Shown piece after piece: positions 5,141 through 24,208 of a stretch of 38,875 nucleotides of DNA (within the stretch, counting starts at the first letter, position 1; the number at the start of each line of letters is the position of its first letter). Source of the stretch: Rhodocyclaceae bacterium (GTDB taxonomy: Bacteria; Pseudomonadota; Gammaproteobacteria; Burkholderiales; Rhodocyclaceae); assembly GCA_035331665.1 (NCBI GenBank), contig DAOLKI010000001.1, forward strand, positions 1 to 38,875, read 5' to 3'. A program made the translations under genes and the position numbers. The notes beneath the pieces are model-generated. The model was not told where the DNA came from and ran no database searches. It was given only the letters and a program-made list of their open reading frames with translations.

Positions 5141-5165
5141 GAAGGCCCGCCAGGGGCGGGCCTTC
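5134..5165 (-). terminator. intrinsic terminator downstream of the pilin gene (it may also stop the convergent antiporter transcript)
   Basis: Perfect 11-bp stem GAAGGCCCGCC / GGCGGGCCTTC (5141-5151 and 5155-5165) with a 3-nt loop. On the minus strand it is followed by TCATTTT. It sits between the convergent stops at 5140 and 5184. Confidence 0.65.
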
Positions 5166-5183
5166 GGAACAGGTGGCAGCCCT

Positions 5184-5846
5184 TCAGTAGGCGGCGCAGA
5201 CGGTATACAGGTTCGCGTCGTCCGCCGGGGCGAGGGCGACGGCGTCTGCCGCCGTCGCGCAGGTGTTTTGGCAAATGACCCGCAAGGTGCCGGTCGCCGT
5301 ATTTCCATCATCGATGGTGGTATCGATCTGTCGGGCGAAGCGGCCCTGGATGTTGGTGGAACAGACATAGAAGTTGGCGATGTAAGGCGTCGTCGGTGCA
5401 GTCAGGACCGGGTCGCCCGTAATGCCGATGGCTCCGCCGTCGGCATTGCGCGGGACGTAATCGGCGGCCGCCGTATTCGTGGTACCCGTCGCAAGGCCGG
5501 CCAAGCGCACGTGCTGCCAGAACAGATAGGTTTCGTCGGTTGCAGTGGCGGAGTTCCAGGTGCCATTCAGTCGGGCGTTGCCGACGGACCCGGCGGGCGT
5601 CGTGGCAACCGTGGCGCCGGCGCCCACGTGATTGACCACGGCGGTGTCGTCACCCGGAAGGGCGCGAAACTTGTCCTGGTAGGCATAGACGAAGGTCGAG
5701 ATGTTGCGGAAGTCGCCCGCCATGTTCTTGACCTTGGCGCTGTTGATGAGCTCCTGGCCCTTCAGCACGCCGCCGAGCAGCAGGCCGATGATGACCAGCA
5801 CGATGGCGATTTCGACAAGGGTGAATCCGGATTGCTTGCGGTACAT
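5184..5846 (-). CDS. type IV pilin-like major subunit (prepilin N-terminal cleavage/methylation domain)
   Basis: The internal ATG at 5846 gives MYRKQSG/FTLVEIAIVLVIIGLLLGG. This is a short basic leader, then Gly-Phe, Glu at +5 and a hydrophobic helix. A strong SD (AAGGAGAAGG, 5851-5860) lies 4 nt upstream. The C-terminal region has four Cys. The ORF-track start at 5993 would add 49 non-pilin residues and overrun the promoter. Confidence 0.85.
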   Translation of the reverse strand: MYRKQSGFTLVEIAIVLVIIGLLLGGVLKGQELINSAKVKNMAGDFRNISTFVYAYQDKFRALPGDDTAVVNHVGAGATVATTPAGSVGNARLNGTWNSATATDETYLFWQHVRLAGLATGTTNTAAADYVPRNADGGAIGITGDPVLTAPTTPYIANFYVCSTNIQGRFARQIDTTIDDGNTATGTLRVICQNTCATAADAVALAPADDANLYTVCAAY

Positions 5847-5899
5847 TTTTCCTTCTCCTTGGCGACAGGGTGTCGTCCTTCTGGCGTTAATATGGAATC

Positions 5900-5915
5900 T
5901 GCAAGAACGGTGCCA
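5900..5915 (-). promoter_or_regulatory. sigma-54 (-24/-12) promoter of the pilin gene
   Basis: The plus strand reads TGCAAGAACGGTGCCA, so the minus strand reads TGGCAC-CGTTC-TTGCA. This is an exact match to the TGGCAC-N5-TTGCW consensus. It lies 54 nt upstream of the pilin ATG, and a sigma-54 activator is encoded in the same locus. Confidence 0.7.
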
Positions 5916-5932
5916 GCCGGTTTCCGTAAAAA

Positions 5933-5945
5933 AATCGACCGCTTG
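5933..5945. promoter_or_regulatory. possible IHF-type bending site between the sigma-54 promoter and upstream repeats
   Basis: AATCGACCGCTTG matches WATCAANNNNTTR with one mismatch and is preceded by an A7 tract (5928-5934). Two GGAAAAT direct repeats (minus-strand reading; plus strand 5950-5956 and 5973-5979) lie beyond it. Confidence 0.25.
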
Positions 5946-5985
5946 GGCAATTTTCCTCAGGTGAAGTGACGGATTTTCCACGCTG

Positions 5986-7728
5986 ATGTCCAAAATTGGA
6001 CATATCCCTAAAGTGATAGGTGCGCGCTCCTCGTCGGAATTGCTGGACTGGATCGCCCAGCGGCGCCGCTGGTTGCTCTTCGCGTTATTGTTCCTTTTCT
6101 ACCTCACCCTGCTGGAAGGCGTGGCCGACCCGGTCAGTCGCACCCTGGCGGTGGTGCAGGTGGGCCTGTTCTTCTTGTGGCAACCCTTCATCCAGGCCGA
6201 CCGGCACATTGCTCCCCTCAGCGTTGCGGTACTCGCGGCCCTGGTCGTCTACGGTGCGGCCCATCTGAGCTGGGGAACTCTGATCCTCTGGGCCCTGCTC
6301 ATCGCCGGGATCATCGGGGGCAAGGTCTTCCACCCCGGCAGCCGATGGAATCGCCTGTTCCACCTTCTGGCCCTCGCCTTCCTCGTCGCCGCCATGCTTG
6401 CGGTTCTCGTGCCACGCGTGCTCCCCGGTGGGGTCCAGGTCGGCGGCAGCCTGGACCAGGTCGTGATCGCCGGGTTGCCCATCCTGATGCTGATCATGGG
6501 ATTGCTCCCCGTGGAGCCGGAGGCTCCCGGTTACCGGAACGCCGTCGATCTTGCCTACAGCGCCTTCATTTTTCTCATCCTTGCGGTCCTGATGCTGGGT
6601 AGCGTTGCCGGGATGGCGATCGGTCGGCTGGATTACCTGAGTTCGCTCGTGGTGGCAACGCTGGTGACGGCCGGCGGCCTGATCCTCCTGACATGGGCCT
6701 GGAATCCCCGGGGCGGTTTCGCCGGATTCGGGACGATCCTTTCCCGGCATCTGCTCTCGATGGGCACGCCTTTCGAGGAATGGGTGGAGTCCCTGTCGGC
6801 GGCTGTGCAAGGGGACGACGATCCGGGCCTGTTCGTCGCCCGGGCCTGTGCCGAATTGCCGCGCCGCATACCCTGGGTCTCCGGCGGGGAGTGGCGCACC
6901 GAGGACGGCGTGGGGAGTTTCGGCACGGGAACAGACCAACGCAGCGAGTACCGGCACGAGCGGCTCACGGTCGTCGTCTTTACGCGCCACGCGTCGACGC
7001 CGGTGATGGCCTGGCATTTGAACGTGGTCACCCGACTGATCGCCGAGTTCTACAATGCCCGGGTCCGGGCGGCCGAGCTGAGGCGCTTGACGTACCTTCA
7101 GGCCATCTACGAGACGGGGTCGCGATTGACCCACGACGTCAAGAACCTGCTCCAGTCCTTGAACACGCTGTGCGCCGCGGCGACCGGCGACGATGCATCC
7201 TCTCCGCGTTTCCAGGAGATGGTCCGGCGGCAGTTGCCGGTCATTGCCGCGCGCCTTCAGCAGACCCTGGAGAAGTTGAAGACGCCCGAATTGGCAGAGT
7301 CGCCCGCCATGGACGCCGACGACTGGTGGCATGACTTGGCGGGTCGCTTCGCCGGCGAAAGTGTCGAGTTCGCGCCATGGGACGGCGTACCGGGCCTGCG
7401 GGTGCCGGCAGCCCTGTTCAACGCCGCGGCGGAAAACCTGCTGCGCAATGCACTGGAAAAACGGCAACGGGAACCCGGCATCGCAATCCGCGTCTGCCTG
7501 GAGACGGATGCGGAAAAGGCCGCGCTGTCGGTGACGGATTGCGGCAGCGCAATCGGCGATGACCTGGCCAGGGAGATAGGTCGGGGACCGGTCGAGTCGG
7601 CAGGCGGCTTCGGCATCGGGCTCTACCAGATTGCCCGTTACGCCGCGGCCGGCGGCTATCGGTTGTACCTGGCCGAGAACCGCCCGGGCCGGGTGCGCTT
7701 CCGCCTTGCCCCGGATTCCCGCGCCTGA
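5986..7728 (+). CDS. polytopic membrane sensor histidine kinase
   Basis: 580-aa ORF. The first 260 aa or so are a run of hydrophobic helices. Kinase motifs follow: H-box RLTHDVKNLLQSL, N-box ENLLRNALEKR, G1 VTDCGSAIG and G2 GGFGIGLYQ. It is divergent from the sigma-54-dependent pilin gene. Confidence 0.8.
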   Translation: MSKIGHIPKVIGARSSSELLDWIAQRRRWLLFALLFLFYLTLLEGVADPVSRTLAVVQVGLFFLWQPFIQADRHIAPLSVAVLAALVVYGAAHLSWGTLILWALLIAGIIGGKVFHPGSRWNRLFHLLALAFLVAAMLAVLVPRVLPGGVQVGGSLDQVVIAGLPILMLIMGLLPVEPEAPGYRNAVDLAYSAFIFLILAVLMLGSVAGMAIGRLDYLSSLVVATLVTAGGLILLTWAWNPRGGFAGFGTILSRHLLSMGTPFEEWVESLSAAVQGDDDPGLFVARACAELPRRIPWVSGGEWRTEDGVGSFGTGTDQRSEYRHERLTVVVFTRHASTPVMAWHLNVVTRLIAEFYNARVRAAELRRLTYLQAIYETGSRLTHDVKNLLQSLNTLCAAATGDDASSPRFQEMVRRQLPVIAARLQQTLEKLKTPELAESPAMDADDWWHDLAGRFAGESVEFAPWDGVPGLRVPAALFNAAAENLLRNALEKRQREPGIAIRVCLETDAEKAALSVTDCGSAIGDDLAREIGRGPVESAGGFGIGLYQIARYAAAGGYRLYLAENRPGRVRFRLAPDSRA

Positions 7729-7732
7729 CCGG

Positions 7733-9046
7733 TCAGGCGACCTGTGCCTCGCGCACGGCCTTGCGGCCGATCAGGCGGTAAACGGTCATGTTTCCCTTGC
7801 CCTTCAGGTAGATCGTCTGCGGCTCGTGGAACTCGAAATTCTCGTGCAGGCGGCGGTAGGTGGTGGTGTCGCACTGGACCATCCCGGGTACGCCCTCGGT
7901 CGTGATGCGGCTGGCGATATTCACCGTATCGCCCCACAGGTCGTAGATGAACTTCTTCTTGCCGACCACTCCGGCCACCACCGGCCCGGTACCTATCCCG
8001 ATGCGCACCTCCAGGTGCGAGGTATTGACCGCGAAGTCCCGGTGCAACAGGTCGCGCATGGCCACCGCCATGTCCGCGATGGCCGCGGAGTAGTCCCGCG
8101 GCCCGTCGTTCAATCCGCCGGCCACCATGTACGCGTCGCCGATGGTCTTGATCTTCTCGAGCCCGTAGCGTTCTGCCAGTTCGTCCCAGGCCGAGAAGAT
8201 CCGGTTGAGCATCGAAAACACCTCCCCGGGAGACATGCCGGCGGCCACCTGGGTGAAATTCACGATATCGGCGAACATGACCGTCACATCGGCGAAGCCG
8301 TCGGCGATGGTCTCGTCCGAGTTCTTCAATCTTTCCGCCACGGGACCGGGCAGGATGTTCAGGAGCAGACGCTCGGACCGGTCCTGCTCGATCTGCAGCA
8401 GATGGTGGGCTTCCCGCAGTTTCTCCTCGGTCTTCTGCTTCTCCTGTATGGAAAATCGCAGCAGCATGTAGATGATGGTCGCCACGGCGACGAAGTTGAG
8501 CGCGAAGAACACCACGCTCGTTCGCACGGGCACGGCCGTCGCCTGAAGGCTTGCGACGTCGGCGAGCACGAAGTCGAAGGCGCCCGAGAGCAGGGTCAGG
8601 AAGGCCCACGCGAAGAACCAGGCCACCGACTCCCGTACGCCGAAGAAAAGGATGGCACCGACGGGCGCCAGGAGGCCCCAGAGGATGATGCCGCTCGCCG
8701 TGATGAAGTTGCCGATGCTCCACTGCACGGCAAAGGGCGCGAACAGGAACAACGCCAGTTGCGTGACCCGGAAGAAGTCGAAATTGCGGCTCGCCACGTA
8801 GAGGACGAGGTTGGCGGTCAATGCCAGCTGGAACAGGAAGGGATAGGTGGCCGACAGCTGCGGTCCGAGCATCCAGTACAGGGCCAGCCACAGCATCGAC
8901 GCCGCACTGACGAGGCCGGTGGCGAAGACCAGGAGGGACTTGTTGAGGCGCTGCTCCTCGCTGTCGCCCGGCTCCACCCCCGCATTGCGAAGTCGGGCCA
9001 GGAATCCGTCTCTTCTTCTGGCGGCGAGGGATTGGGGCGCGGACAT
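7733..9046 (-). CDS. membrane-anchored class III adenylate cyclase
   Basis: About six TM helices, then a CYCc domain with VTVMFADIVNFT, KIKTIGDAYM and IYDLWGDTVNIASR. The Lys in KTIGD and the Asp in YDLWG are the adenine-specifying pair. The start is taken at ATG 9046 (MSAPQSL...); ATG 9163 is an alternative. Confidence 0.85.
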   Translation of the reverse strand: MSAPQSLAARRRDGFLARLRNAGVEPGDSEEQRLNKSLLVFATGLVSAASMLWLALYWMLGPQLSATYPFLFQLALTANLVLYVASRNFDFFRVTQLALFLFAPFAVQWSIGNFITASGIILWGLLAPVGAILFFGVRESVAWFFAWAFLTLLSGAFDFVLADVASLQATAVPVRTSVVFFALNFVAVATIIYMLLRFSIQEKQKTEEKLREAHHLLQIEQDRSERLLLNILPGPVAERLKNSDETIADGFADVTVMFADIVNFTQVAAGMSPGEVFSMLNRIFSAWDELAERYGLEKIKTIGDAYMVAGGLNDGPRDYSAAIADMAVAMRDLLHRDFAVNTSHLEVRIGIGTGPVVAGVVGKKKFIYDLWGDTVNIASRITTEGVPGMVQCDTTTYRRLHENFEFHEPQTIYLKGKGNMTVYRLIGRKAVREAQVA

Positions 9047-9202
9047 GATGTGGGCGTTGCGTTTCAGCCGATTAGTCTCGCAGGAAGCCCAATGCCGGTC
9101 AAGGCGCCCATCCGCCCCGAACGTGGCCAAGTCCCTTTCCCGGAGCATGCCGTCATCGCGCATGTGGTAGCGGGTGGCATGCGTCGCCGGGATGCGACGC
9201 CG

Positions 9203-10030
9203 TCACGGCAGTTGGCCGGCGGCGATCATCCGGTTGTACAGGATATTCGGCGACAGCCAGGCAACGATGTCGTCGAACTCGCCGTCGGTGCTCCCCGCGG
9301 CCGTCGGCGGATGCGAGACGAAGGCCGGATCCGCCGCGGGCGCCGCGGCGTTCGGGTTCGGGTTGTGCTGCTCGCCCGTACCTGTCCCGCCGCCTCCGCC
9401 TGTGCGCCCGTTGGGCCCCAGCGAGTAGATCACCGCCACGGCGTTGTCGGTCAGTTTCCCTGCCGTGGTGCAGGTCGCATGGCCGGCGGCAGTCGCCAGA
9501 TTGGTGGTCCCGGGATTCTGCACGGCCGATCCCGATGCGCAGACGCTCAGGAAGGTATTGGAGGCGAGGAACGAGGCCAGGCCGTCGAGTTTTGCGTTCT
9601 TCATCCCGTTGGCGGTGGTGAAGGCATTGGCCACCGCATTCACCGTGCCCGGATACACCGCATAGCGGATGGGGCGGTTCCACGCATCCGTGGCGAAGCC
9701 CTGCGCGTTTGTCGGGGTGACGCCAAGGGTGACCGCGGGCACGAAACCGGAGTAGGGCGCAACACAGGCGCCGCCGCCGGACGGATCCTCCACGCCGGCG
9801 CTCGCTGCCGTCGCCGGGCAGGGGAGGCGGCCGTGGGAAGCGGCGAAGCCGATGACCGCCTCGCGGATGTCGGCCACCGTCTTCTCCGTCTCGCCCAGGG
9901 CCCTCAGGTCCGACTGGGTGGAGATCGGGATCAGCATTCCGCCGAGGAGCAGCGCGACGATCAACAGCACGACGGCCATTTCCGTCAGCGTGAATCCGCC
10001 GCATGCGGCGCCGCCCGTGTCTTCCCTCAT
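9203..10030 (-). CDS. minor pilin-like protein (prepilin cleavage/methylation motif)
   Basis: 275 aa starting MREDTGGAACGG/FTLTEMAVVLLIVALLLGG, with Glu at +5. It also has an LPCP...C module and a Gly-rich stretch. Its start overlaps the stop of the upstream gene (ATGA at 10027-10030). Confidence 0.8.
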   Translation of the reverse strand: MREDTGGAACGGFTLTEMAVVLLIVALLLGGMLIPISTQSDLRALGETEKTVADIREAVIGFAASHGRLPCPATAASAGVEDPSGGGACVAPYSGFVPAVTLGVTPTNAQGFATDAWNRPIRYAVYPGTVNAVANAFTTANGMKNAKLDGLASFLASNTFLSVCASGSAVQNPGTTNLATAAGHATCTTAGKLTDNAVAVIYSLGPNGRTGGGGGTGTGEQHNPNPNAAAPAADPAFVSHPPTAAGSTDGEFDDIVAWLSPNILYNRMIAAGQLP

Positions 10031-12282
10031 CGCGTCTTCAGTTTGAAGTCGGAAACCGTGTACCGTTGGCCTACCGTGGACTGGCCCACCGTGAAGCCGA
10101 CCCAGAAATTGCGGAACACCTGCACCGTGGCCCGCAGGTCCTGGAGGGTGACCTGGTCGCGGAGGTAGATGGTGGGCGGCAGCAGGATGCTACCCGACTC
10201 GAGCCAATTCGCCCAGGACGTACCCGAGAAATCGACCGCCACGTTGTCGATGCCGGGGAAGTCGGTCGCCTCCGCGCTCTTCACCACCCAGACCTTGACG
10301 TCGTAGGTGCCCGTGCCGCGCCCGCCGACGCCGGACGGCGGAGTATAGGCGCGGACGATGTCCATGCGCACCAGGAAGGTCCGGTCGCTTGCGGTCGGGC
10401 AGACCGTGGAACTGTTCAGACAGGTCAGGGTGGCCCGCTTCGTCGAGAGCGGACTGGTCAAGGTCGGGAAATCCGGACCGAAACTGCCCTCGTTGGTGGA
10501 TGATGGCGACGCGGCGTGGTGCACATTGTCATCATCGACCGTCGTGAAGCTGTTCCAGTAATGCAGCGCCACGTGGTTCGCGTTCGTGTCGGACCTGTCC
10601 GCGTTGTTCTGCGTGTCGAACTCGAGGCCGATCTTGGAATAGACGACGGGGCTGGAATACGGGATGCCGAGGGCATTGGCGTTGGTGCCGGCATATCCGA
10701 GGAACCGGCCACCGTTGCCGCACATGGCCGTGGTGGCATTGCTGCTGCTGTCCGCCAGGGTCAGGGTGAATCCCTGGCCCGGGGTGTCGTTCTCGATCCG
10801 GAACTTGAAGTAGGCGCGGATGCCGGTACCGAACGGGACCGTCGTGCCGTACCAGGTGCAGCCGAACAACTGGCCGGTGACCAGCGCATATCCCGTATCG
10901 GCATCCGTGTGGCCCGTGGTGGCATTGTCATTGCCGAGCACGAGGGTTTCGCCGCTGCGGTTGACCAGGGACTGGGTGCCGCCGACGCCGACGATGCTTA
11001 GTGGCGCAGTGACATCGGTGAAATCGCCCAGATCGCGCTGGAAGGACACTTCCGGCGGATTGAGGCAATACATGAGGTCCTGGGAGGCGGCGAGCCGAGG
11101 ATTGGTGATCGTCAAGGTGGACGGCCCGGCGAAATCCGTTCCGGTACCGGTGAAACTGGTCAGATTCGCACCTTCGAGAAAACTTCCCGGCGAGGCGGCT
11201 TCGCCAGCGGTGCGCGGGCCGCCGGCGACTCGTTCGCCGGCGAAGAGCAGCACACCCGTGCATGCGCCGCCGTTGAGACACTTGGTCTTCTGGTTGGTGC
11301 ACACGGAATAGCGATATTGGTTGTACCAATAGGGATAGTATTGGGGTGACGTGGCGCTGTTCGGGAAGGTTCCCGGAGCGACGGTTGCCGCAATCGTCCC
11401 GGAAAGCTTCGTCCCCGCGGCGGCGGCGACGGCCGGGGCAGGCAGGACCGCGCGTCCCTCGAAATCGAGCTTGATGTCGTTGCCGAGGGACGACAGGTGA
11501 GTCGCGAAATCCGCCCGGGCCTTCAGGGCCGTGAAGATTTCCTTTGGCGAGATGGCGAGCACCCGGTCATTATTCGTGCCGCTCGACGACTCGCCTTCCG
11601 TCACGTTGACGGTGCCGAGGGCGACTCCGCCGGCCCCAAACGGGGCCGACTCCAGGTAAGCGGCGAAATTCGCGGCCGTGTCGGCACCGCAGGACCGCGT
11701 GGCCGTCTCGGCAGACCGGGACTGGCCCACCAACGGGCTCCCCGGAGCGAACACGACAGCCGCGCCACCGCCCTCGCCATCCCCCGGGGTCGATCGGATC
11801 GTCCCGGTGGCCGTGGCCAGATGGAAATTTCCTTGCATATCCCAGGTGAAAGGCGCTGCCGCCGCGGGCGAGTTCTTGAAGTTCGCTCCGACGCCGTACC
11901 AGAGACAGGCGCCGGTTTCGTCCCGGAGCGGTTCCAGGCCGAGGGTCTTGTAGGGGAGATATCCGACGACGGTCTGGCCGGACGTTCCGCAGGGAGGGTC
12001 CGCGATTCCGTCGCCGTCCGTGTCCGGGCAGGGCAGGTAGCCGAACATGCTTGTGGGATGGGCGTCTCGGTAGGTGGCCGCGTAGCCGAGCAACGCCTGT
12101 TTCGCCGTGGCCAAGGCCTTGAGGCCGACTTCCTGCCGCTGTGGGGCGGCCGGCAGCGACATCTGACGAACCAGAAGGAAGAGAACGCCCGCCCCGAGAA
12201 TCGCCAACAAGGCGAGAAGGGCGTATCCCCCCTCCGCCGATGACCGGCCGGGCTGGGAATGCCCCGTGGTCCTGTCCGCCAT
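10027..12282 (-). CDS. large non-canonical pilin-like protein with a C-terminal L-type lectin/ConA-like domain (MshQ/GspK-like candidate tip protein)
   Basis: 751 aa. The N-terminal hydrophobic helix (GGYALLALLAILGAGVLFLL) has no Glu at +5. An LPCP module is shared with the next gene. The C-terminal 341 aa carry lectin-like strand motifs (see the domain feature). A GAGG SD lies upstream. Confidence 0.7.
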   Translation of the reverse strand: MADRTTGHSQPGRSSAEGGYALLALLAILGAGVLFLLVRQMSLPAAPQRQEVGLKALATAKQALLGYAATYRDAHPTSMFGYLPCPDTDGDGIADPPCGTSGQTVVGYLPYKTLGLEPLRDETGACLWYGVGANFKNSPAAAAPFTWDMQGNFHLATATGTIRSTPGDGEGGGAAVVFAPGSPLVGQSRSAETATRSCGADTAANFAAYLESAPFGAGGVALGTVNVTEGESSSGTNNDRVLAISPKEIFTALKARADFATHLSSLGNDIKLDFEGRAVLPAPAVAAAAGTKLSGTIAATVAPGTFPNSATSPQYYPYWYNQYRYSVCTNQKTKCLNGGACTGVLLFAGERVAGGPRTAGEAASPGSFLEGANLTSFTGTGTDFAGPSTLTITNPRLAASQDLMYCLNPPEVSFQRDLGDFTDVTAPLSIVGVGGTQSLVNRSGETLVLGNDNATTGHTDADTGYALVTGQLFGCTWYGTTVPFGTGIRAYFKFRIENDTPGQGFTLTLADSSSNATTAMCGNGGRFLGYAGTNANALGIPYSSPVVYSKIGLEFDTQNNADRSDTNANHVALHYWNSFTTVDDDNVHHAASPSSTNEGSFGPDFPTLTSPLSTKRATLTCLNSSTVCPTASDRTFLVRMDIVRAYTPPSGVGGRGTGTYDVKVWVVKSAEATDFPGIDNVAVDFSGTSWANWLESGSILLPPTIYLRDQVTLQDLRATVQVFRNFWVGFTVGQSTVGQRYTVSDFKLKTR
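10030..11052 (-). other. lectin-like (legume/ConA-type beta-sandwich) domain of the 751-aa protein
   Basis: The ordered motifs are FKFRIENDTPGQGFTLTLAD, GGRFLGYAG, KIGLEFDTQNNADRSDTNANHVALHYWNS and FWVGFTVGQSTVGQRYTVSDFKL. They parallel the legume lectin pattern F.F.I...ADGlaFfl / G..LG / vAVEFDT..N..D...HvGIdvNS / V.vGFSa.TG....h.i.sW.F. Confidence 0.55.
11989..12030 (-). other. Cys-bracketed DxDxDG calcium-binding-type loop in the 751-aa protein
   Basis: Hand translation gives C-P-D-T-D-G-D-G-I-A-D-P-P-C (aa 85-98). DTDGDGIAD fits the DxDxDGxxD Ca-loop pattern. Confidence 0.4.
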
Positions 12283-12290
12283 GGGCCGCC

Positions 12291-12725
12291 TCAGTCGGCG
12301 CGGCGCACCGATTTCCTGACGACGCCGCCGCCCAGGCCGTCGTTCTTCTCGCGCGTTGCCCGGTTGATGGACTCGCCGACCTTGAGGCGCGCCGGAACCT
12401 CGTCGCTCGCAGTGAGGACGGCCTCGGCGGGGTCGCCGGGACGCACTCCGACGGTCACGCCGGTGCCGACATCGCGGTGGTACTGGGGCATGCCACTGAC
12501 CCAGACCGTGTCGTGGCCGCTGGATCGCCGGACGGTGCCGTCCAGGCTCATCACGGCGCCCTGCAGCGTCTGGGTCTGTTGAACGTTGGCCTGACGCTGA
12601 CGCTCCAGGGACGCCCGCCGTTCCGGGGAAAAGAACAGCCTCCCAAGGGGTTCGGCCGCTTCGGCAATGGGCGGCACGCCGAGAGCCAGAGCGACGAGGA
12701 CCGGCAAGAAGCGAACCTTGCTCAT
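12291..12725 (-). CDS. small secreted/periplasmic protein (MshK/PilP/GspC-like position)
   Basis: The internal ATG at 12725 gives MSKVRFLPVLVALALGVPPIAEA/AEP, a signal peptide. This ATG overlaps the upstream stop (ATGA at 12722-12725). I recognise no family motif. The ORF-track N-terminal extension is Arg-rich and overlaps the upstream gene. Confidence 0.5.
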   Translation of the reverse strand: MSKVRFLPVLVALALGVPPIAEAAEPLGRLFFSPERRASLERQRQANVQQTQTLQGAVMSLDGTVRRSSGHDTVWVSGMPQYHRDVGTGVTVGVRPGDPAEAVLTASDEVPARLKVGESINRATREKNDGLGGGVVRKSVRRAD

Positions 12726-16082: not shown

Positions 16083-16091
16083 GGGGATTCG

Positions 16092-17798: not shown

Positions 17799-17837
17799 GC
17801 TCGCGTCGTTGTCCCGGGCGGACCGGCGCGCCGGTGC

Positions 17838-19106
17838 CTACCGGTCCTGCAGTTCTCGCAACCGGGCCGTCAAGCCGGCCCGGTCGAATGCCGCCGGCCG
17901 CGTATCCGCCATGGTAAGCGCCTGATTGTAATACTGGACGGCGAGCTTGACCTGATGCAGGTGGTCGAGGCTGACCGCGAGGTTATAGACGACGTCGGGG
18001 TTGTCGGGATCGAGCGTGAATGCCTTGAAATAGGATTGCTGGGCATCGCTCCAGCGGGATTGACGCGAGTGCAGGTTTCCCAGCGCGAAATGCAGCGAGG
18101 CCTGGTCGGGTTGGCCGGAAATCAGGGTCTTCAGGCGGGTCTCGGCCTGGAGCGGATCGGCGCGGCCACGCAGTCCGATGAGGCCGGCCACCGCCACGGC
18201 ATCCTTCGGGTCCGATTCGGCGGCACGGAAATAGAGGTCCTCCGCCTCCTCTGGGCGACCCTGGCGCAGGGCGACGCTCGCCAGTCCCACCAACGCGTCG
18301 GTGTTGCGCGGTTCCCCCTTGAGTACCCGCTCGTACTCGAGCCGCGCCTGGTCCATGCGACCTGCGGAGAACGCGTCGAATGCCGCGGCGACCCCCGCAT
18401 TAACCTGCAGACGGGACGTGGAAATGCGCACCGGGCTCTGGGGCGTGGGTGGCGGTTCCGGCAGGCGGGCTTCGGGCGGCCGGGATTCGGTCGCGACACG
18501 TGCCTTGGGCGGCGCAAGCGCGATCTCCCCCCCGGCGACCGCAACGCTCTTTGCGGTCGAAGGCTCAGCCGCTTCGGTGGGCGCGGGGGAGGCTGCCGGC
18601 GCGAGGGGCTTCGGTGGGGGTACCGGATTGTGGGCACCCGTCGGCGGGACCAAGGGCTGGGTTCCGGATGGGCGGGTCTGCCACCAGTACCATCCGCCGA
18701 TTGCGCCAGCGCCCACGATCCCCAGTGCGACGGCAATGGCGGCGAATGGGCGCCGTTCGGTGCCGGGTTGCTTCGCCTCGAACAACTGTCGGGCGGCGGC
18801 CATCTCGGCGGCCGCGTCGGCCGATTCCCCGTCCGCCGTGCGGGAGGGAGATTCGGAAGGCGTTCTCCGACGCGGCGGCGCGGGTCGCTCGAATTGCCGG
18901 TCCAGGTCCTCGAGCCGGTTCGGCAACTCCGGCAGGGTGGCCCGGCCGCCCGTGCCGGCACCTGCCGGAGCGCGGGCGCCCTCGGACTCCAATGGCGTGA
19001 GTTCGAGATCCGCCGGTGCTTCCGCTGTGACCTGGGGAGCACCCTCTCCGACGGCCTGGCGTTTTGCCTCCTCGGCCTTCTTGAGGGCATCCATCAACAG
19101 GCTCAC
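17838..19106 (-). CDS. mshN: TPR-repeat bitopic protein (MshN-like; N-terminus GspB/ExeB-like)
   Basis: 422 aa starting MSLLMDALKKAEEAKRQ. A Pro/Ala-rich region and a TM (FAAIAVALGIVGAGAIGGWYWW) follow, then TPR-like repeats (LGNLHSRQSRWSDAQQSYFKAFTLDPDNPDVVYNLAVS...). Its GTG start overlaps the secretin stop (GTGA at 19103-19106). Confidence 0.75.
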   Translation of the reverse strand: MSLLMDALKKAEEAKRQAVGEGAPQVTAEAPADLELTPLESEGARAPAGAGTGGRATLPELPNRLEDLDRQFERPAPPRRRTPSESPSRTADGESADAAAEMAAARQLFEAKQPGTERRPFAAIAVALGIVGAGAIGGWYWWQTRPSGTQPLVPPTGAHNPVPPPKPLAPAASPAPTEAAEPSTAKSVAVAGGEIALAPPKARVATESRPPEARLPEPPPTPQSPVRISTSRLQVNAGVAAAFDAFSAGRMDQARLEYERVLKGEPRNTDALVGLASVALRQGRPEEAEDLYFRAAESDPKDAVAVAGLIGLRGRADPLQAETRLKTLISGQPDQASLHFALGNLHSRQSRWSDAQQSYFKAFTLDPDNPDVVYNLAVSLDHLHQVKLAVQYYNQALTMADTRPAAFDRAGLTARLRELQDR

Positions 19107-20923
19107 GGCCGCAGGCCCTCCAGATTCAGCTGCGGTTGCGGCGGCCCCGGATTCTTCTCGAAGAAATCCTGTCCCGGAAGCTGGTCGCGGAAGGCCGCAT
19201 AGTCACCGGAAAGGCTCGCGTCCCGGATGACGGTCGGCCGCAGGAAGACCACCAGTTCCGTCTTGCGCCGCAGGTCGTTGCGATTCTGGAAGATGTTGCC
19301 AAATACGGGAATCCTGGAGGCGCCCGGGACGGCATGGTCCGTGTTGTCCAGGGCATCCTCCATCAGGCCGCCCATGACGGCGGTATTGCCGTTCTCGACC
19401 CGGATCATGGTTTCCATTTCCCGGGTCCTGATGACGGGAATCTCGTTCTTCACGCCCAGTTTCTGCAGATCGGGGTTCGGGTCCGTGACGGTGCCGAACT
19501 GGCGCGAGATGCTCGGCCGGATATTGAGCAGCACCGTCTCGTTTTCGCCGATCTGCGGCGTCACGTTCATCACGAGGCCGACGGGCACGGAGAACAGGTT
19601 GGTCGTATAGGTGGTCGTGGTCGTGGTCTGGTTCGCGGTGGTGTCGGCCTTGATCGTGAAATAAACGAGGTTGTCGACCACCTTGAGAACCGCGGTCTGG
19701 TTATTGAGGACGGAGAGTTTCGGGCTGGAAATGACCTTCACGTTGCCGAACGCCTCGAGCAGTTTCACGGTGCCACTGATGTTGCCTATGCGCGAATCGG
19801 GGTTGGAATAACCGATCTCCATCAGGGCGGCGGCGGGCGCCGCGATCGCTCCGGCAGCCTTCTGCACCAGTTTCAGGCCCAGAGCATTCAGGCGCAGCCG
19901 CGACCAGTCGATTCCCTGTTGGTAGTTGTCGGACAGGGAGACCTCCGCCACGGTGGCCTCGATGAGCACCTGGCGTCGCGCCGAAGACGTCACCTGGTCC
20001 AGGAATTCCTGGATCTTCTCGTGTTGTCGCGACGTGGCGCGCACGGTGATGACGCCTGATTCCGGATTCATGATCACGGACGCGGCCTCGCGAAAGGTCG
20101 CCCGACGGACGACGGTCGTCCCCGACTGCTGCAGCGCTGCGGGGTTGGGGCTGGCGGCGATACCGGCCTGGGTCTGGGTCCGGCCGGTCGTCGGGGCCGC
20201 CGCGCCGGTGCCGGTAGTGGACTGCTGGTCCTGGCGTTCCACCACTGTCTCGCTGGATCCCTCGGGCAGAATCTTGTCCGTTTCGCGCAGGATATCCTTG
20301 ATGTTCTTTTCCAGGGTCTCCCAGAAGTGGTTCTGGGCCTTGTTCTCCACCTTGGTGAGGGAGTTGTTGCCGCCGACGGTGCCGGCGCCGGTGGTCGTGC
20401 CCGTGGAACTGACGCCGCTCGCTCCCGTGGCCGCTATCTGCGTGGTCACCGTCACGGTGCCGCTCGTGTCCCGGGACATATTCACGTAGTCCACCCGGTA
20501 GGTCTTCAGGAAGGGTGAGTCGGGCATGACGGCGAGATTGGCACCGTCGAGTTCCCAGCGCATGTCCACCTGCCGGGAAATCCGGTTCAACAACTGCGCC
20601 AGAGTCTGGTCGATGGCATTCAGCGTCACCGTGCCGGCGATGCCCGGATGGATATCCACGTTCAGTTTCGCGTCGCGGGCGAGGGCAAACAGCAGTTCCT
20701 GGGCGCGCACGTTGTTGACGACGACGCTGTAGGTTTCCACCTTCGCGGCCGGCCGGGGCTTGCGAGGGGCCGCGCTGGCCTGGACGGGCGGCGGTATGTT
20801 CGCCGGTGGCGGTGCCACGTTGTCGGCGCGCAGATGTCCGGCCGACGGCGGTTGCACGGGTGCCGTGCCGCAACCCGCCAGCAGGGTGACGGTCAGGGCC
20901 GCAAGCGCAATGCGTGGGATCAT
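19103..20923 (-). CDS. mshL: outer-membrane secretin lipoprotein (MshL/GspD/PilQ family)
   Basis: The ATG at 20923 gives MIPRIALAALTVTLLAGC, which contains a lipobox. The C-terminus has secretin-domain motifs (VISSPKLSVLNNQTAVLKV..., IPVIRTREMETMIRVENGNTAVMGGL..., IPVFGNIF...ELVVFLRPTVI). Confidence 0.9.
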   Translation of the reverse strand: MIPRIALAALTVTLLAGCGTAPVQPPSAGHLRADNVAPPPANIPPPVQASAAPRKPRPAAKVETYSVVVNNVRAQELLFALARDAKLNVDIHPGIAGTVTLNAIDQTLAQLLNRISRQVDMRWELDGANLAVMPDSPFLKTYRVDYVNMSRDTSGTVTVTTQIAATGASGVSSTGTTTGAGTVGGNNSLTKVENKAQNHFWETLEKNIKDILRETDKILPEGSSETVVERQDQQSTTGTGAAAPTTGRTQTQAGIAASPNPAALQQSGTTVVRRATFREAASVIMNPESGVITVRATSRQHEKIQEFLDQVTSSARRQVLIEATVAEVSLSDNYQQGIDWSRLRLNALGLKLVQKAAGAIAAPAAALMEIGYSNPDSRIGNISGTVKLLEAFGNVKVISSPKLSVLNNQTAVLKVVDNLVYFTIKADTTANQTTTTTTYTTNLFSVPVGLVMNVTPQIGENETVLLNIRPSISRQFGTVTDPNPDLQKLGVKNEIPVIRTREMETMIRVENGNTAVMGGLMEDALDNTDHAVPGASRIPVFGNIFQNRNDLRRKTELVVFLRPTVIRDASLSGDYAAFRDQLPGQDFFEKNPGPPQPQLNLEGLRP

Positions 20924-20959
20924 GGCGGTCCCTATAGGATCGAGAATAATGGCAAATCG

Positions 20960-20987
20960 ATCATAACACATCAAAATCGGATTGCAA
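20960..20987 (-). promoter_or_regulatory. possible internal sigma-70 promoter ahead of the secretin gene
   Basis: The minus strand reads TTGCAA-16 nt-TATGAT. It lies inside a 108-nt AT-rich gap (43 G+C of 108 by hand count) in an otherwise GC-rich operon with mostly short or overlapping junctions. Confidence 0.25.
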
Positions 20988-21031
20988 CCAACTGATTTTT
21001 AGCAGTTTATTTCTCCGTTGTTTTCCTGTTC

Positions 21032-22591
21032 CTAGCGCAGTCTCCTGACTTGCCTCGGAAACGGCTTCTGTGCCTTCAGCGGGGAGGGCAGGGACGCGAC
21101 GGCCGCCGCCGCCGCTTCGCGTGTCCGAAACTCCCCGTAGAGAACACCGATCCGCGTTTTGCCCTGGACCGGCACGGCATAAGCGCGCAGTTCGCCGTAT
21201 TCCGCGCCGCTTTCCACCTGGGCGAGCAGGCGTTCGACCTCCCCGGCCTGGGCGCCGCCGGTGATGAGGATCTGCAGGACCCAGGCGTCGTCGTTTGCCT
21301 TCTGCAACCAGGCGCGAGTCTCGCCGAGTTTGGCCCGGGTTCGCGCTCCGAAGGGCTCCGTGTCGAGGCCGGGCGGAGCATCCCTGCCGTGGTTCGCGGC
21401 CGCTTGTACGCCGGGGGCCGGCATCGTGGCGGTCGCGGGCGACGGCGCCGGTGCAGCCTGGGAGGTCTGGGCAGGCGACGGTGGCACGGGGGGAGCGGGT
21501 TGGGGGTTCGCGGGCGCCCCGGCAACCGCGGCGGTCGGCGCCGAATCCGCGGGAGCCACGGTGGCGGGGGTGGCCGGAACCACGGGCTGCGGGGCTGCGG
21601 TGGAGGGCGGGAGTGTCGTGGCGGGCGTCGTTGATCCCTGGGAGGGTGTCGGCCCCGGTGCTGACGGGGGCAGGCTTTCCGGGACCTGCGGTCTGGCCAG
21701 CCACCATCCGGCGCCCAGCGCGAGTGCCACGGCGGCGGCCATCGCGGCTCCGACGCCGGCCAATCGCGCGCTGTTCCGGGGCAGAGGGAATTCCGAGTCG
21801 CGCACCGCCGCCTTCACATGCCGCGGGAGCACCTGGTAGCCACCCTCCGCGAAAACAGCCAGCAGGGACTTGTCGGCAAGGATGTTGATACGCCGGGTCA
21901 ACCCGGAGGAGGCCTTGTCGATCAACCGTACCGCGGCCAGGCCGAAGACGTCCGGCCCCCGGTAGCCGGCGGCCCGCATCCGGAAGGCCAGATAACTCGC
22001 GATATCCTCGCGGACGAGGGGCTCCAGCGTGAAATTGTGGGTGATCCGGTCCTTCAACTGCCGCATTTCGGGCCGCGCCAGGATTTCGTTCAGTTCCGTC
22101 TGGCCGAACAGGACCAATTGCAGGAGCTTGTGCCGGTTCGACTCCAGGTTGGAGAGGAGCCGGATCTCCTCCAGCGTTTCCGGCGGCATCGCGTGGGCTT
22201 CGTCGATCAGGACGACCACTTGGCGGCCGGCCGAATACAACTCGATCAGGCGCTCCTGCAGGGCGCGCAGCAGCAACGTCGCCCGCGCGCTGTCGGCGAC
22301 CGGAATTTCCAGTTCGTCGGCCAGCGCGTACAAGATGTCGTCGCGGGAGAGGGAAGGGTTTGCCAGGTAGATGGTCACCACCTTTTCCGGCAAGCGCTCC
22401 ATCAGGACCCGGCAAAGCATCGTCTTTCCGCTGCCCACCTCGCCGCTGACCTTGACGATTCCTTCGTCATGGGTGATGGCGTAGATCAGGGCTTCCAGGG
22501 TGGCGCCGCGATTTGCGCCGGAAAAGAAGAAATCCGTGTGCGGCGTGATCCGGAAGGGCGCTTCGCCGAGACCGAAATGGCGGAGGTACAT
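21032..22591 (-). CDS. mshM: ExeA/GspA/MshM-family AAA ATPase with TM segment and C-terminal SPOR-like domain
   Basis: 519 aa starting MYLRHFGLGEAPFRITPHTDFFF, with Walker A GEVGSGKT and Walker B VVVLIDEAH. A TM (GVGAAMAAAVALALGAGWWLA) and a Pro/Ala/Thr-rich linker follow. The last 86 aa (WVLQILITGG...RIGVLYGEFRTREAAAAAVASLP) resemble a SPOR fold pattern. Confidence 0.85.
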   Translation of the reverse strand: MYLRHFGLGEAPFRITPHTDFFFSGANRGATLEALIYAITHDEGIVKVSGEVGSGKTMLCRVLMERLPEKVVTIYLANPSLSRDDILYALADELEIPVADSARATLLLRALQERLIELYSAGRQVVVLIDEAHAMPPETLEEIRLLSNLESNRHKLLQLVLFGQTELNEILARPEMRQLKDRITHNFTLEPLVREDIASYLAFRMRAAGYRGPDVFGLAAVRLIDKASSGLTRRINILADKSLLAVFAEGGYQVLPRHVKAAVRDSEFPLPRNSARLAGVGAAMAAAVALALGAGWWLARPQVPESLPPSAPGPTPSQGSTTPATTLPPSTAAPQPVVPATPATVAPADSAPTAAVAGAPANPQPAPPVPPSPAQTSQAAPAPSPATATMPAPGVQAAANHGRDAPPGLDTEPFGARTRAKLGETRAWLQKANDDAWVLQILITGGAQAGEVERLLAQVESGAEYGELRAYAVPVQGKTRIGVLYGEFRTREAAAAAVASLPSPLKAQKPFPRQVRRLR

Positions 22592-22603
22592 GGCCGTTCC
22601 CGG

Positions 22604-24064
22604 TCAGGCCGCGTCGCCGCCGGCTCGGGTCAGGGCGGCGATCCGGTTGTACAGGGTGGTCCGATTCACGCCGAGCAGGCGCGCGGCCTGGCTCAGGTTT
22701 CCGTGGGCGATCTTCTGCGCGGCCTCCACGTAGGCGAGTTCCCAATTCCTGAGCGTCTGGTCCAGATCGAAGCCATCCCGCGCCTGGAGCTGGCGCAGGG
22801 CGATCGCCACGAGCTGATCGTGATCCGTCGGGACTGCCCAGGGTGCCGCATCCGCCTGCCCCGGTGCCATGTCGAATTCCTCGTGCAGGTCCTCGGGCCC
22901 GACGGTTCGGCCGGCGTGCTTGGCGACGAGCCGGATCACAATGTTGCGCAGTTCCCTGACATTTCCCGGGAAGTGGTAGGCCAGCCAGGCGGCCTCGGCG
23001 GCCGATGACAGCACGAACGGCGGCCGGCCGGTCTGGCGGGCGTATAGCGCGCGGAAATGATCCAGCAACAGGAGGCGGTCGCGCCCCGTCTCGCGCAATG
23101 GCGGCGCCACCACCGTGAACACGGAAAGCCGATGGTAAAGGTCGGCGCGGAACCTCCCTTCCCGGACTTCGCGGCGCAGGTCCCGGTTCGTCGCGGCGAT
23201 GATCCGCGCCCGGCTATGGCGCGGGAAGGTTTCTCCGACGCGTTGGTACTCGCCGTTCTCCAGCACCCGCAACAGCTTCGGCTGCAGTTCGAGGGGCAAT
23301 TCCCCTATTTCGTCCAGGAAGAGGGTGCCGTCGTCCGCATCCTCGAAATAACCCGACTTGGCCTGCGTGGCCCCGGTGAACGCGCCCTTGGCATATCCGA
23401 ACAGCGTCGGCTCGACCAGGGAGGGCGAAATTGCGGCGCAATTGAGCGCGAGGTAGGGGCGGTGTCGGCGATGGGTCAGGCGATGCAGGAATGCCTGGGC
23501 GACAATCTCCTTCCCGCTCCCGGACTCGCCTTCTATGAGCACGGGGAACGGCGAATCCGCGTACTGGCCGACCTGTTCGCGCAGTTTCCGCACCGGCGGG
23601 CTGTCCCCGACGAATGCTTCCCCATCCGTGCGCGCGGCGGGGGACAACTCGGCCTCGCGGAAGCTGAGAGCCCCCCTCAACGTCTGGCGCAAGGTCTCCG
23701 GGTCGGCGGGTTTGGCCACGAATTCGGTGGCCCCGAGGGCTCGGGCGTGGCGGGCGTTGGACTCGTCGCTCTGACCGGACAGGATGATGATCTTCATCGC
23801 CGGTGACAGGGCCAGCAGATCCCCCACCAGCGCGAAACCTTCGTCCGGACGATGGGGATGCGGCGGCAGCCCCAGGTCCACGAGGGCCAGTTCAGGCGGG
23901 CGCCCTGCAGACCTGGCCACGGCAATCCCCTTCTCGCGGGTGTCGGCCATGAGGATGCGGAAATCGGGGCCGAGAAAGAAGCCGAGACTCTCCGTGATCA
24001 ATGGATCGTCGTCCACGATCAACAGGGTCGGCCTTTCGTCCGCCGCAGGCGAGGCATTCTTCAT
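22604..24064 (-). CDS. sigma-54-dependent response regulator (receiver + AAA+ EBP + Fis-type HTH)
   Basis: Receiver motifs are LLIVDDD and ALVDLGLPP. The AAA+ domain has GESGSGKE, an intact GAFTGA loop and RELRN. The C-terminal HTH is GNLSQAARLLGVNRTTLYNRI. The start is taken at ATG 24064 (MKNASPAADERPTLLIVDDD); the ORF-track start at 24097 is a TTG. The stop lies 12 nt before the next gene. Confidence 0.9.
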   Translation of the reverse strand: MKNASPAADERPTLLIVDDDPLITESLGFFLGPDFRILMADTREKGIAVARSAGRPPELALVDLGLPPHPHRPDEGFALVGDLLALSPAMKIIILSGQSDESNARHARALGATEFVAKPADPETLRQTLRGALSFREAELSPAARTDGEAFVGDSPPVRKLREQVGQYADSPFPVLIEGESGSGKEIVAQAFLHRLTHRRHRPYLALNCAAISPSLVEPTLFGYAKGAFTGATQAKSGYFEDADDGTLFLDEIGELPLELQPKLLRVLENGEYQRVGETFPRHSRARIIAATNRDLRREVREGRFRADLYHRLSVFTVVAPPLRETGRDRLLLLDHFRALYARQTGRPPFVLSSAAEAAWLAYHFPGNVRELRNIVIRLVAKHAGRTVGPEDLHEEFDMAPGQADAAPWAVPTDHDQLVAIALRQLQARDGFDLDQTLRNWELAYVEAAQKIAHGNLSQAARLLGVNRTTLYNRIAALTRAGGDAA

Positions 24065-24170
24065 GTCCAGCGGATGATAGCGCAAACGTCCTTGCAACCC
24101 CCCGCCGCGCCGCCGCCCAGGATGGCACGCGAGTCCGCCGTGCCGGCGGGCAGAGAGCCGCGGGCGGCTC

Positions 24171-24179
24171 TGCTAGAAT
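24171..24179 (+). promoter_or_regulatory. possible extended -10 promoter for the mla operon
   Basis: TGCTAGAAT (TGnTAnAAT) lies 30 nt upstream of the proposed mlaF GTG start. It is immediately preceded by the palindrome GAGCCGC-GG-GCGGCTC (24155-24170). Confidence 0.3.
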
Positions 24180-24208
24180 GCCGAGGTTTTTTGTTTGGAA
24201 ACCGTGCC

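Follow-up and report, generated by a model that had tools for sequence, protein, structure and literature searches.

We analyzed a stretch of 38,875 bases (hereafter the window; ~66% G+C) from contig DAOLKI010000001.1 of a Rhodocyclaceae bacterium (GCA_035331665.1), which contains a locus that very probably encodes a type IV filament machine related to the mannose-sensitive haemagglutinin (MSHA) pili, that is, to the MSH class of filaments. The list of open reading frames (ORFs) and direct reading of the junctions placed eleven consecutive genes on the minus strand, from 24064 down to 9203, and confirmed the tight packing that had been reported in a preliminary description of this DNA. The ATG of the first gene, which encodes a regulator, was confirmed at 24064 by direct reading. 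Beyond the run lie an adenylate cyclase gene (minus strand), a histidine kinase gene (plus strand) and a pilin gene (minus strand), and the histidine kinase gene is on the opposite strand to all other genes of the locus.

All five start/stop overlaps that had been listed for the run were present. There is a GTGA overlap at 19103-19106, and ATGA overlaps were found at 12722-12725 and 10027-10030. At 14878-14882 and 13334-13338, where ATGA had also been given, the coding strand reads TGATG with overlaps of 1 nucleotide (nt), so that the earlier wording contained a trivial error. The other gaps in the run are 12, 9, 8 and 39 nt, together with an AT-rich gap before the secretin ATG at 20926. The latter exists as described but measured 105 nt instead of 108 nt; the larger figure probably includes the stop codon.

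The domain content that had been assigned to these genes proved right by Pfam and NCBIfam models. As the canonical MSHA reference we used a locus of Aeromonas caviae (L081, record NZ_AP026896.1). Note that this record is listed in PLSDB as a 'plasmid' of 4.94 Mb with only 18 annotated features, and it looks like a chromosome filed as a plasmid. The gene at 21032-22591 (minus strand) encodes an MshM/ExeA-type AAA+ ATPase (AAA_22, 3e-29), in which a membrane segment and a proline-rich linker lead to a peptidoglycan-binding SPOR domain at the C-terminus. The Pfam match to SPOR was weak in this protein (residues 448-510), and the domain was present in 18 of 25 orthologues (best E 1.8e-6). Residues 1-267 aligned with Aeromonas MshM at 43% identity over 270 amino acids (aa; E 2e-67); the Aeromonas protein has only 295 aa and is without the periplasmic part. 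With its periplasmic SPOR domain, the MshM homologue has the topology of ExeA.

The adjoining gene (19103-20926, minus strand) encodes an MshL-type outer-membrane lipoprotein secretin with Pfam Secretin and Secretin_N_2 domains and the lipobox LLAGC. This protein passed the pilus_MshL model TIGR02519 (260.1 bits; cut-off 250.2) but not the models of GspD (157 bits; cut-off 351) or PilQ (106.5 bits; cut-off 284), and it was 35% identical to Aeromonas MshL. Further, its orthologues in Rhodocyclaceae genomes are already named 'pilus (MSHA type) biogenesis protein MshL' by NCBI. A tetratricopeptide repeat (TPR) protein is encoded at 17838-19106 (minus strand), with several Pfam TPR matches at residues 244-400. 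Its similarity to Aeromonas MshN was weak (32% over 105 aa, E 5.5e-4); its gene occupies the MshN position, between the secretin and MshM genes on one side and the ATPase gene on the other, as in L081 and in an MSH-type locus of Legionella (L082, described below).

The assembly ATPase gene (16092-17798, minus strand; T2SSE, 1.9e-129) encodes an MshE-type N-terminus (MshEN, PF05157, 5.8e-17). The protein passed NF053729, the MshE-related model of the cyclic di-GMP (c-di-GMP)-binding motif, with 61.9 bits against a cut-off of 38, and both 24-residue c-di-GMP motifs were readable in the N-terminus, which is accordingly predicted to bind c-di-GMP. The scores were 541.9 bits with the GspE model (cut-off 630) and 534.2 bits with the PilB model (cut-off 675), and identity to Aeromonas MshE was 39%. 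The gene at 14880-16082 (minus strand) encodes an inner-membrane platform protein of the GspF/PilC/MshG family with two copies of T2SSF (9.3e-51). The best curated model for this protein was GspF, at 297.6 bits and below the cut-off of 424, and it was 30% identical to Aeromonas MshG over the full length.

Three genes at the positions of mshI, mshJ and mshK follow. The first (13336-14880, minus strand) encodes a 514-aa protein that matched no Pfam or NCBIfam model, and a profile search of the PDB gave nothing meaningful. The AlphaFold2 model, which was built on an alignment of 18 homologues (predicted local distance difference test, pLDDT, 78.9), consisted of an actin-like domain at residues 1-285, a long membrane helix and a C-terminal, presumably periplasmic, alpha/beta domain. 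Foldseek matched the model to PilM (E 3e-10), to FtsA and to the EpsL/GspL cytoplasmic domain (E 8e-9 to 1e-7, target TM-scores 0.55-0.67). Because of this domain layout and these matches, we concluded that the 514-aa protein is, by its predicted fold, a fused PilM-PilN/GspL-type alignment protein. The 'GspL/MshI-like' label that had been guessed for it was thus confirmed at the level of the fold. The family to which it belongs has at least 2672 clusters at 50% identity (E up to 0.001), and all of its named members are called 'hypothetical'.

The 514-aa family served as the query in a scan of one genome per GTDB species, in which relatives were found in 123 stretches, and 80 of these were kept. 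The second gene of the trio (12722-13336, minus strand) encodes a 204-aa bitopic protein with an N-terminal hydrophobic segment, in the GspM/PilO/MshJ position, and is conserved in all 80 of these loci. The third (12291-12725, minus strand) encodes a 144-aa secreted protein with a signal peptide, in the PilP/MshK/GspC position. The start at 12725 gives the ATGA overlap with the upstream gene; in the program-made ORF list this protein is a 179-aa ORF. An alignment of 25 sequences contained a near-invariant LGRLFFTPE(R/K)RAxLERQR right after the signal peptide. Neither the 204-aa nor the 144-aa protein matched a family in Pfam or NCBIfam, a PDB entry in searches with the family profile, or a template in hhalign. 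Comparison by hhalign of all three families with single Aeromonas MshI, MshJ and MshK sequences was likewise negative, and single-sequence templates have low sensitivity. Position, topology and conservation suggest a GspM/PilO/MshJ-like role for the 204-aa protein and a PilP/MshK-like role for the 144-aa protein. The earlier labels of these two, 'GspM/MshJ-like' and small periplasmic protein, found no family match and stand as readings of gene position.

As had been described, there are only three pilin-like genes, and the major pilin gene is detached from the run beyond the adenylate cyclase and histidine kinase genes. The globular parts of all three proteins matched no curated family. The last gene of the run (9203-10030, minus strand) encodes a 275-aa minor pilin with the prepilin motif GG↓FTLTEMAVV, matched by N_methyl and TIGR02532 and conserved in 58 loci. 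The major pilin candidate (5184-5846, minus strand; start ATG at 5846) was matched by the same two models (N_methyl, 4.5e-8). It has a 7-residue leader (MYRKQSG↓FTLVEIA), and its mature form of ~213 aa has four C-terminal cysteines. The N-terminal 60 residues were almost invariant among 22 orthologues. Both the minor pilin and the major pilin candidate resemble the Aeromonas Msh pilins in the N-terminal helix only.

Between the gene of the 144-aa protein and that of the minor pilin lies the gene of a 751-aa protein (10027-12282, minus strand), which begins with a minor-pilin paralogue, continues with a middle domain and ends in an L-type lectin. When its family was compared with the minor-pilin family using hhalign, residues 9-253 matched the entire 275-aa family (probability 99.6%, E 8e-24). 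The region of the processing site reads G↓(Y/A)ALL, and Glu5 is absent. On this profile comparison, the 751-aa protein is best described as a minor-pilin paralogue fused to a lectin, and the earlier guess of a 'giant non-canonical pilin' was confirmed.

The lectin assignment has several sources. Pfam gave a weak legume-lectin match, and a profile search of the 751-aa family against PDB lectins gave E 1e-4. The AlphaFold2 model (pLDDT 84; predicted TM-score, pTM, 0.81) starts with a long helix, which is followed by a mixed domain and, at the C-terminus, by a beta-sandwich. Foldseek matched this beta-sandwich to legume lectins (E 6e-8) and to the legume-lectin domain of M. jannaschii with a target TM-score of 0.77. 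The motif IGLEFDT...NH matches the spacing of the metal ligands in concanavalin A (ConA), which we take to be E, D, N, D and H of the Mn/Ca site. Among 24 sequences, the corresponding residues were conserved at E554 (24/24), D556 (23/24), D565 (21/24) and H570 (24/24), and position 560 was N in 10, Asp in 8 and Ser in 5. By its fold and these conserved residues, the C-terminus is an L-type lectin with an intact metal site, and sugar binding is predicted. We propose that the lectin-pilin is the tip adhesin. Its orthologues range from ~700 to ~1290 aa; the longer ones have inserted repeat modules and extra C-terminal modules, and match PF16190, PF12195, PF18483 and PF18815 in Pfam (e.g., locus L026, 12791-15961). 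This suggests that the adhesive end diversifies fast on a constant pilin base.

The 80 kept stretches were almost all from metagenome-assembled genomes that carry the label Rhodocyclaceae, Rhodocyclales, Sulfuritalea, Sterolibacterium or Sulfurisoma. Georgfuchsia toluolica and Candidatus Nitricoxidivorans also have homologues of the lectin-pilin and of the secretin. The gene order was identical in all 44 loci of at least 20 kb, namely regulator, MshM, secretin, TPR protein, ATPase, platform, 514-aa protein, 204-aa protein, 144-aa protein, lectin-pilin and minor pilin, usually next to mlaF; a few of the 44 were without an above-coverage-threshold match for one variable gene. In ~20 of these long loci the series continues with the cyclase gene, the kinase gene on the opposite strand, the pilin gene and a kef-like gene. 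Because the eleven-gene order recurs in all 44 loci, it is more than chance. The preliminary description had left to comparative genomics how widely the exact order occurs: it was found in every long locus compared, and the 123 stretches from which these loci come are nearly all of Rhodocyclaceae-type genomes. We concluded therefore that the locus is vertically inherited in the clade and that the pilin-kinase-cyclase module is separable from it.

The regulator gene at 22604-24064 (minus strand) is the first gene of the run, as described. It encodes a sigma-54-dependent response regulator of the NtrC family with a receiver domain (Response_reg), an AAA+ sigma-54 interaction domain (Sigma54_activat, 8.7e-63) and a Fis-type helix-turn-helix (HTH_8). 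The histidine kinase gene (5986-7728, plus strand) encodes a multi-pass membrane protein with a weak HATPase_c match and an H-box, LTHDVKNLLQSL, visible in the translation; there was no HisKA or PAS match in Pfam. The gene is transcribed away from the pilin gene and towards the cyclase gene. The preliminary description had called this sensor kinase built-in; it does adjoin the pilin gene but is on the opposite strand. The cyclase gene (7733-9163, minus strand) encodes a membrane-anchored class III adenylate cyclase (Guanylate_cyc, PF00211, 3.8e-53), the true start of which may be Met40, near 9046. In class III cyclases a Lys/Asp pair specifies adenine, and both residues were read from the translation (Lys in KTIGDAYM and Asp in YDLWGDTVN). 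The cyclase and kinase genes were in the same place in ~20 of the 44 long relatives. Their stops (7728, plus strand, and 7733, minus strand) are separated by four bases, with no terminator hairpin between these convergent genes, and their transcription may cause mutual interference.

The window contains only one zero-mismatch TGGCAC-N5-TTGCW element, the sigma-54 (-24/-12) promoter of the pilin gene (TGGCACCGTTCTTGCA, 5900-5915, minus strand). This element, TGGCAC-N5-TTGCA, begins 69 nt upstream of the pilin ATG, with an AAGGAG ribosome-binding site in the interval. In 21 of 22 related loci an equivalent -24/-12 element preceded the pilin gene by 40-68 nt, and the 22nd had a near-match; the background rate of such elements is 0.0077 per 120 nt. 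Before the machinery genes, no sigma-54 site was found within one mismatch of the consensus. The operon had been described as led by its own sigma-54 activator; the activator gene is indeed first, but the sole good sigma-54 promoter is at the distal pilin gene. On the other side of the pilin gene, 19 nt after the stop codon, is an intrinsic-terminator-like hairpin (5141-5165, minus strand; 11 pairs, 9 G-C). It was the strongest of the hairpins listed, and the total of terminator-like hairpins in the region was not above the shuffled expectation.

A sigma-70-like promoter (20960-20987, minus strand) was found in the AT-rich spacer before the secretin gene, with TTGCAA, a 16-nt spacer, TATGAT and an extended TG, and was the only sigma-70-type match in 5000-24400. 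Of 48 related loci, 37 carried the element upstream of the secretin gene, and there were only 44 matches in total in 2.6 Mb on both strands; the motif was derived from the sequences in which it was then counted, which tells against the count as such, and the evidence is its positional specificity. Across the related loci L001-L073, the mshM-secretin spacer (20927-21031 in the window) had a median length of 112 nt and a mean A+T content of 57%, and contained a conserved element like AAATCATTGAGTTGCA-N11-TGTGTTATGCT. This element may act as an extended -10 promoter for sigma-70 and perhaps also as a binding site of the regulator. Because there is a sigma-54 promoter at the pilin gene and a conserved sigma-70-like promoter at the secretin gene, several transcription units are likely. 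As predicted from these elements, they would be the regulator and mshM genes, the genes from the secretin to the minor pilin, and the pilin gene alone; a single eleven-gene transcript would not be the best prediction.

The sigma-54 promoter of the pilin gene requires an activator of exactly the class that is encoded by the first gene of the cluster, and the adjoining divergent kinase is the obvious partner of that regulator, a pairing suggested by the neighbourhood. Thus, the elements of a PilS-PilR-type circuit (a -24/-12 pilin promoter, an NtrC-type activator and a sensor kinase) are all in the locus, and their functional pairing is putative. We considered whether the regulator, kinase and cyclase might be mere neighbours that control something else, for example an exopolysaccharide in the manner of PrsK/PrsR, with the pilus regulated independently. 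The best NCBIfam models of the regulator and the kinase were those of the PrsR and PrsK proteins of the XrtA/PEP-CTERM system, the kinase gene lies on the opposite strand, the kinase and cyclase genes are not adjacent in L026-type loci, and the machinery genes are not preceded by a sigma-54 promoter. However, membership in the PrsK/PrsR two-component system was not indicated by the scores, which were far below the cut-offs: the regulator scored 336.7 bits with TIGR02915 (cut-off 502.6; the NtrC model gave 329.3 bits, also below its cut-off), and the kinase, which matched weakly to the C-terminal half of PrsK, scored 42.9 bits with TIGR02916 (cut-off 300). Further, the regulator gene leads the cluster, 12 nt from mshM, and is the first gene in every long relative, and the pilin gene beside the kinase gene has a conserved sigma-54 promoter that needs this class of activator. 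We therefore consider a purely accidental neighbourhood improbable.

The class of the machine was judged by the model of Denise et al. (2019), in which MshL, MshM, MshE, MshG and MshA are the mandatory MSH components, mshA is allowed to lie apart and a prepilin peptidase is not part of the set (PMC6668835). In that scheme type IVa pili (T4aP) are multi-locus and MSH is single-locus (PMC6668835). We found the MshL secretin, MshM and the MshE-type N-terminus in the locus, with the platform protein and the detached pilin as putative counterparts of MshG and MshA, and no prepilin peptidase among the genes of the 38.9-kb window. The MshL-type lipoprotein secretin, MshM, the MshN-like TPR protein and the MshE-type ATPase support the earlier assignment to the MSH class. 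As had also been stated, the gene order is rearranged relative to the canonical one, which in the Aeromonas locus L081 reads I-J-K-L-M-N-E-G-F and then the pilins.

The preliminary description had further called the locus a hybrid with a type II secretion system (T2SS), and we examined a T2SS-like machine as an alternative. Such a machine would have no surface pilus; a short periplasmic pseudopilus would push folded substrates, possibly the lectin protein, through the secretin. The top NCBIfam models of the ATPase and the platform were GspE and GspF, the alignment protein is a fusion of the GspL-like kind, the MshM homologue is ExeA-like in topology and bears a peptidoglycan-binding domain, and the catalytic domain of the ATPase was 41-42% identical to GspE/XcpR, slightly above the 37% to MshE. 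However, the secretin, ATPase and platform all scored below the cut-offs of GspD, GspE and GspF, and the secretin passed that of MshL. No match to GspC was found in the window. The five-member GspG-K pseudopilin set is absent, and the pilin-like proteins gave only weak, sub-threshold N-terminal matches to GspG and GspH. The size of the major pilin and its four C-terminal cysteines are typical of true pilins, and the lectin protein, as a minor-pilin paralogue with a pilin-type helix, would be built into the filament and not secreted free. Further, the ATPase is predicted to be of the c-di-GMP-gated kind, the hallmark of adhesive MSHA pili (PMC4624765). We consider a secretion machine very unlikely, and 'T2SS hybrid' was overstated: the T2SS-like traits are limited to the GspL-like fusion and the ExeA-like, SPOR-bearing MshM.

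The locus might instead encode a divergent T4aP for twitching or DNA uptake and not an adhesive MSHA-type pilus. In PDB searches the full-length ATPase scored best against PilB and PilF (430 bits), in a small tree it stood loosely beside PilB-like sequences, and control of the pilin gene by sigma-54 and a two-component system is the classic T4aP (PilS-PilR) arrangement. Against this, the scores with the PilQ and PilB models were far below the cut-offs, no PilT-family gene (PilT/PilU retraction ATPase) and no prepilin peptidase were found in the window, and separate pilMNOP genes are absent, since the parts that resemble PilM and PilN are fused in one protein. All components are in one locus with MshM and MshN, which T4aP lack, and T4aP are multi-locus (PMC6668835). 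We regard this alternative as quite unlikely.

We concluded that the locus probably encodes an adhesive pilus that is related to MSHA and gated by c-di-GMP, in which the tip pilin bears a lectin and the major pilin gene is under a sigma-54/two-component switch. Several results weigh against this reading. Counterparts of the accessory MshI, MshJ and MshK and of the minor pilins MshB, MshC, MshD, MshO, MshP and MshQ were not identified, these being accessory and not mandatory in the model, and neither the proteins at the I, J and K positions nor the globular domains of the pilins had similarity to Aeromonas Msh proteins at the sequence level. The ATPase was 37-42% identical to MshE, GspE and PilB alike. 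In a neighbour-joining tree (16 sequences, 480 columns) it formed its own long branch, with bootstrap values of at most 28% for any sister, and did not join GspE or the two MSH-locus ATPases (Aeromonas MshE and that of Legionella); the tree holds only these two MSH-locus ATPases, was made by a crude method and is indicative only. There are two minor pilins, in contrast to known filaments, which use a GspI/J/K-type trio, plus MshQ in MSHA (PMC13533445). Finally, in Sulfuritalea-type loci the regulator gene is kept, but unrelated genes follow the minor pilin gene, and the cyclase, kinase and pilin genes are not adjacent.

A further reading is a separate lineage of type IV filaments that stands beside MSH, T2SS and T4aP and outside MSH, with a tip made of two paralogous minor pilins, one of which is without Glu5 and carries a functional lectin. 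A two-pilin module would then replace both the GspI/J/K-type initiation complex and a separate tip adhesin. We hold this to be possible but rather doubtful.

Variation within the MSH class is already known, because another variant is present in L082, on a Legionella adelaidensis plasmid (NZ_LR134433.1, 257543-268967). This MSH-type locus has four pilin-like genes, one of them of 563 aa. They are followed by I, PilN, J, K and mshL, then by the genes of an AAA ATPase, of a hypothetical protein and of a GspE/PulE ATPase, and the annotation shows no platform gene beside the last of these. A plasmid of Candidatus Manganitrophus (CP114559.1, locus L089) carries a type IV pilus cluster in which two prepilin-motif proteins are unusually large (398 and 501 aa); the cluster also encodes a hypothetical protein of 1613 aa, a pair of assembly-type ATPases and a PilT.

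For an MSHA-related adhesive pilus, we propose the following working model. When c-di-GMP is bound, the ATPase and the platform would polymerise the major pilin through the secretin. The SPOR-bearing MshM and the TPR protein would aid assembly of the secretin through peptidoglycan, in the way that ExeA-ExeB serve ExeD. Both minor pilins would prime assembly and remain at the tip, and the lectin would thereby be displayed as a glycan-binding adhesin for attachment to surfaces or cells. In the regulatory part, the membrane histidine kinase would phosphorylate the NtrC-type regulator, and the phosphorylated regulator would activate the sigma-54 promoter of the monocistronic pilin gene, in the manner of PilS-PilR and pilA. 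From the secretin gene onward, the machinery genes would be transcribed from the conserved sigma-70-like promoter. The neighbouring adenylate cyclase might add a cyclic AMP (cAMP) input, which is a guess.

The surroundings of the locus are ordinary chromosome. The flanking genes encode a KefB-like antiporter, mlaFEDAC with a gene of a STAS-domain protein, an ABC-2 transporter, murA and his genes. The G+C content is even along the window, with no compositional break, and an Rfam scan of the window found no RNA family. We rejected the possibility of a mobile island, because of the even G+C content in the window and the position of the locus between mla and kef-like genes in many relatives.

To our knowledge, work on MSHA pili has been confined almost entirely to Vibrio, Shewanella and Aeromonas. 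We found no paper on msh genes in Rhodocyclales or Betaproteobacteria in the literature, in line with the earlier remark that this variant is poorly characterised. The locus studied here is a chromosomally fixed MSHA relative in environmental Betaproteobacteria of groundwater, lakes and wastewater (Sulfuritalea, Sterolibacterium, Georgfuchsia and others), and attachment and the formation of flocs and biofilms are practically important in the organisms that carry it. With one major pilin, two minor pilins and one lectin, it offers a simple system for the priming of the tip complex and the display of an adhesin. At least four families without a Pfam or NCBIfam model are involved, including those of the 514-aa protein, its 204-aa and 144-aa partners and the lectin-pilin, and the 514-aa family is a clear candidate for a new curated family. 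Further, the locus presents a testable circuit, in which a sigma-54 two-component input would act on the pilin gene, c-di-GMP would act on the motor, and cAMP might take part as well. If the doubtful proposal of a separate lineage were true, no module for priming and adhesion smaller than this two-pilin one would be known among diderm filaments, and it would follow that an adhesin can polymerise as a pilin rather than dock by beta-strand addition.

Overall, the machine is a variant of the known MSHA-like machine that is conserved in Rhodocyclaceae (Betaproteobacteria), and not a new kind of machine. It shares with the MSHA systems of Vibrio, Shewanella and Aeromonas a lipoprotein secretin of the MshL model, MshM, an MshN-like TPR protein, an MshEN ATPase and a GspF-family platform. 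As in those systems, there is a single locus without a peptidase gene, detachment of the major pilin gene is allowed, and a large adhesin-like protein is encoded beside the minor pilins. In contrast to the I-J-K-L-M-N-E-G-F order of L081, which is accompanied by ~7 pilin/accessory genes, the order here is regulator-M-L-N-E-G-I-J-K-pilins, and neither an MshH-like nor an MshF-like gene is in the eleven-gene run. MshB, MshC, MshD, MshO and MshP plus MshQ are replaced by two minor pilins, and the adhesin is itself a pilin paralogue that ends in an L-type lectin. Further, MshM has a periplasmic SPOR domain, the I protein is one fused polypeptide whereas the Aeromonas locus has two to three ORFs, the J and K proteins and the globular domains of the pilins cannot be aligned, and the ATPase did not cluster with the two MSH-locus ATPases in the small tree. 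Regulation also differs, here involving sigma-54, a two-component system and an adenylate cyclase.

With the Aeromonas T2SS that includes ExeA-ExeB (GspA-GspB), the locus shares the fused GspL-like protein, the motor and platform of the GspE and GspF families, and the ExeA-type AAA+ protein, which has a transmembrane segment and, in the periplasm, a domain that binds peptidoglycan. However, this domain is SPOR here and not PG_binding_1, and the locus differs from a T2SS in failing the GspD, GspE and GspF cut-offs, in being without GspC or five pseudopilins and in having a lectin-tipped pilin. The PilS-PilR/pilA system of Pseudomonas T4aP is similar in its multi-pass kinase, its NtrC-family activator and the sigma-54 promoter on a monocistronic major pilin gene. 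In the locus studied here, unlike that system, ~15 kb separate the kinase gene from the regulator gene, and the two lie at either end of the locus. Their pairing is putative, and the kinase is weakly PrsK-like and without a HisKA or PAS match in Pfam.

The lectin-pilin can be compared with the tip adhesins PilC/PilY1 and MshQ, the latter a large adhesin that is encoded next to the minor pilins and has been proposed for the Vibrio MSHA pilus (PMC13533445). In each case a large protein is encoded beside the minor pilins, is expected at the tip and would serve adhesion. PilY1 and MshQ are proposed to dock by C-terminal beta-strand donation, whereas the lectin-pilin, the adhesive module of which is an L-type lectin, would integrate into the filament as a subunit through its pilin-type N-terminal helix and its minor-pilin domain.

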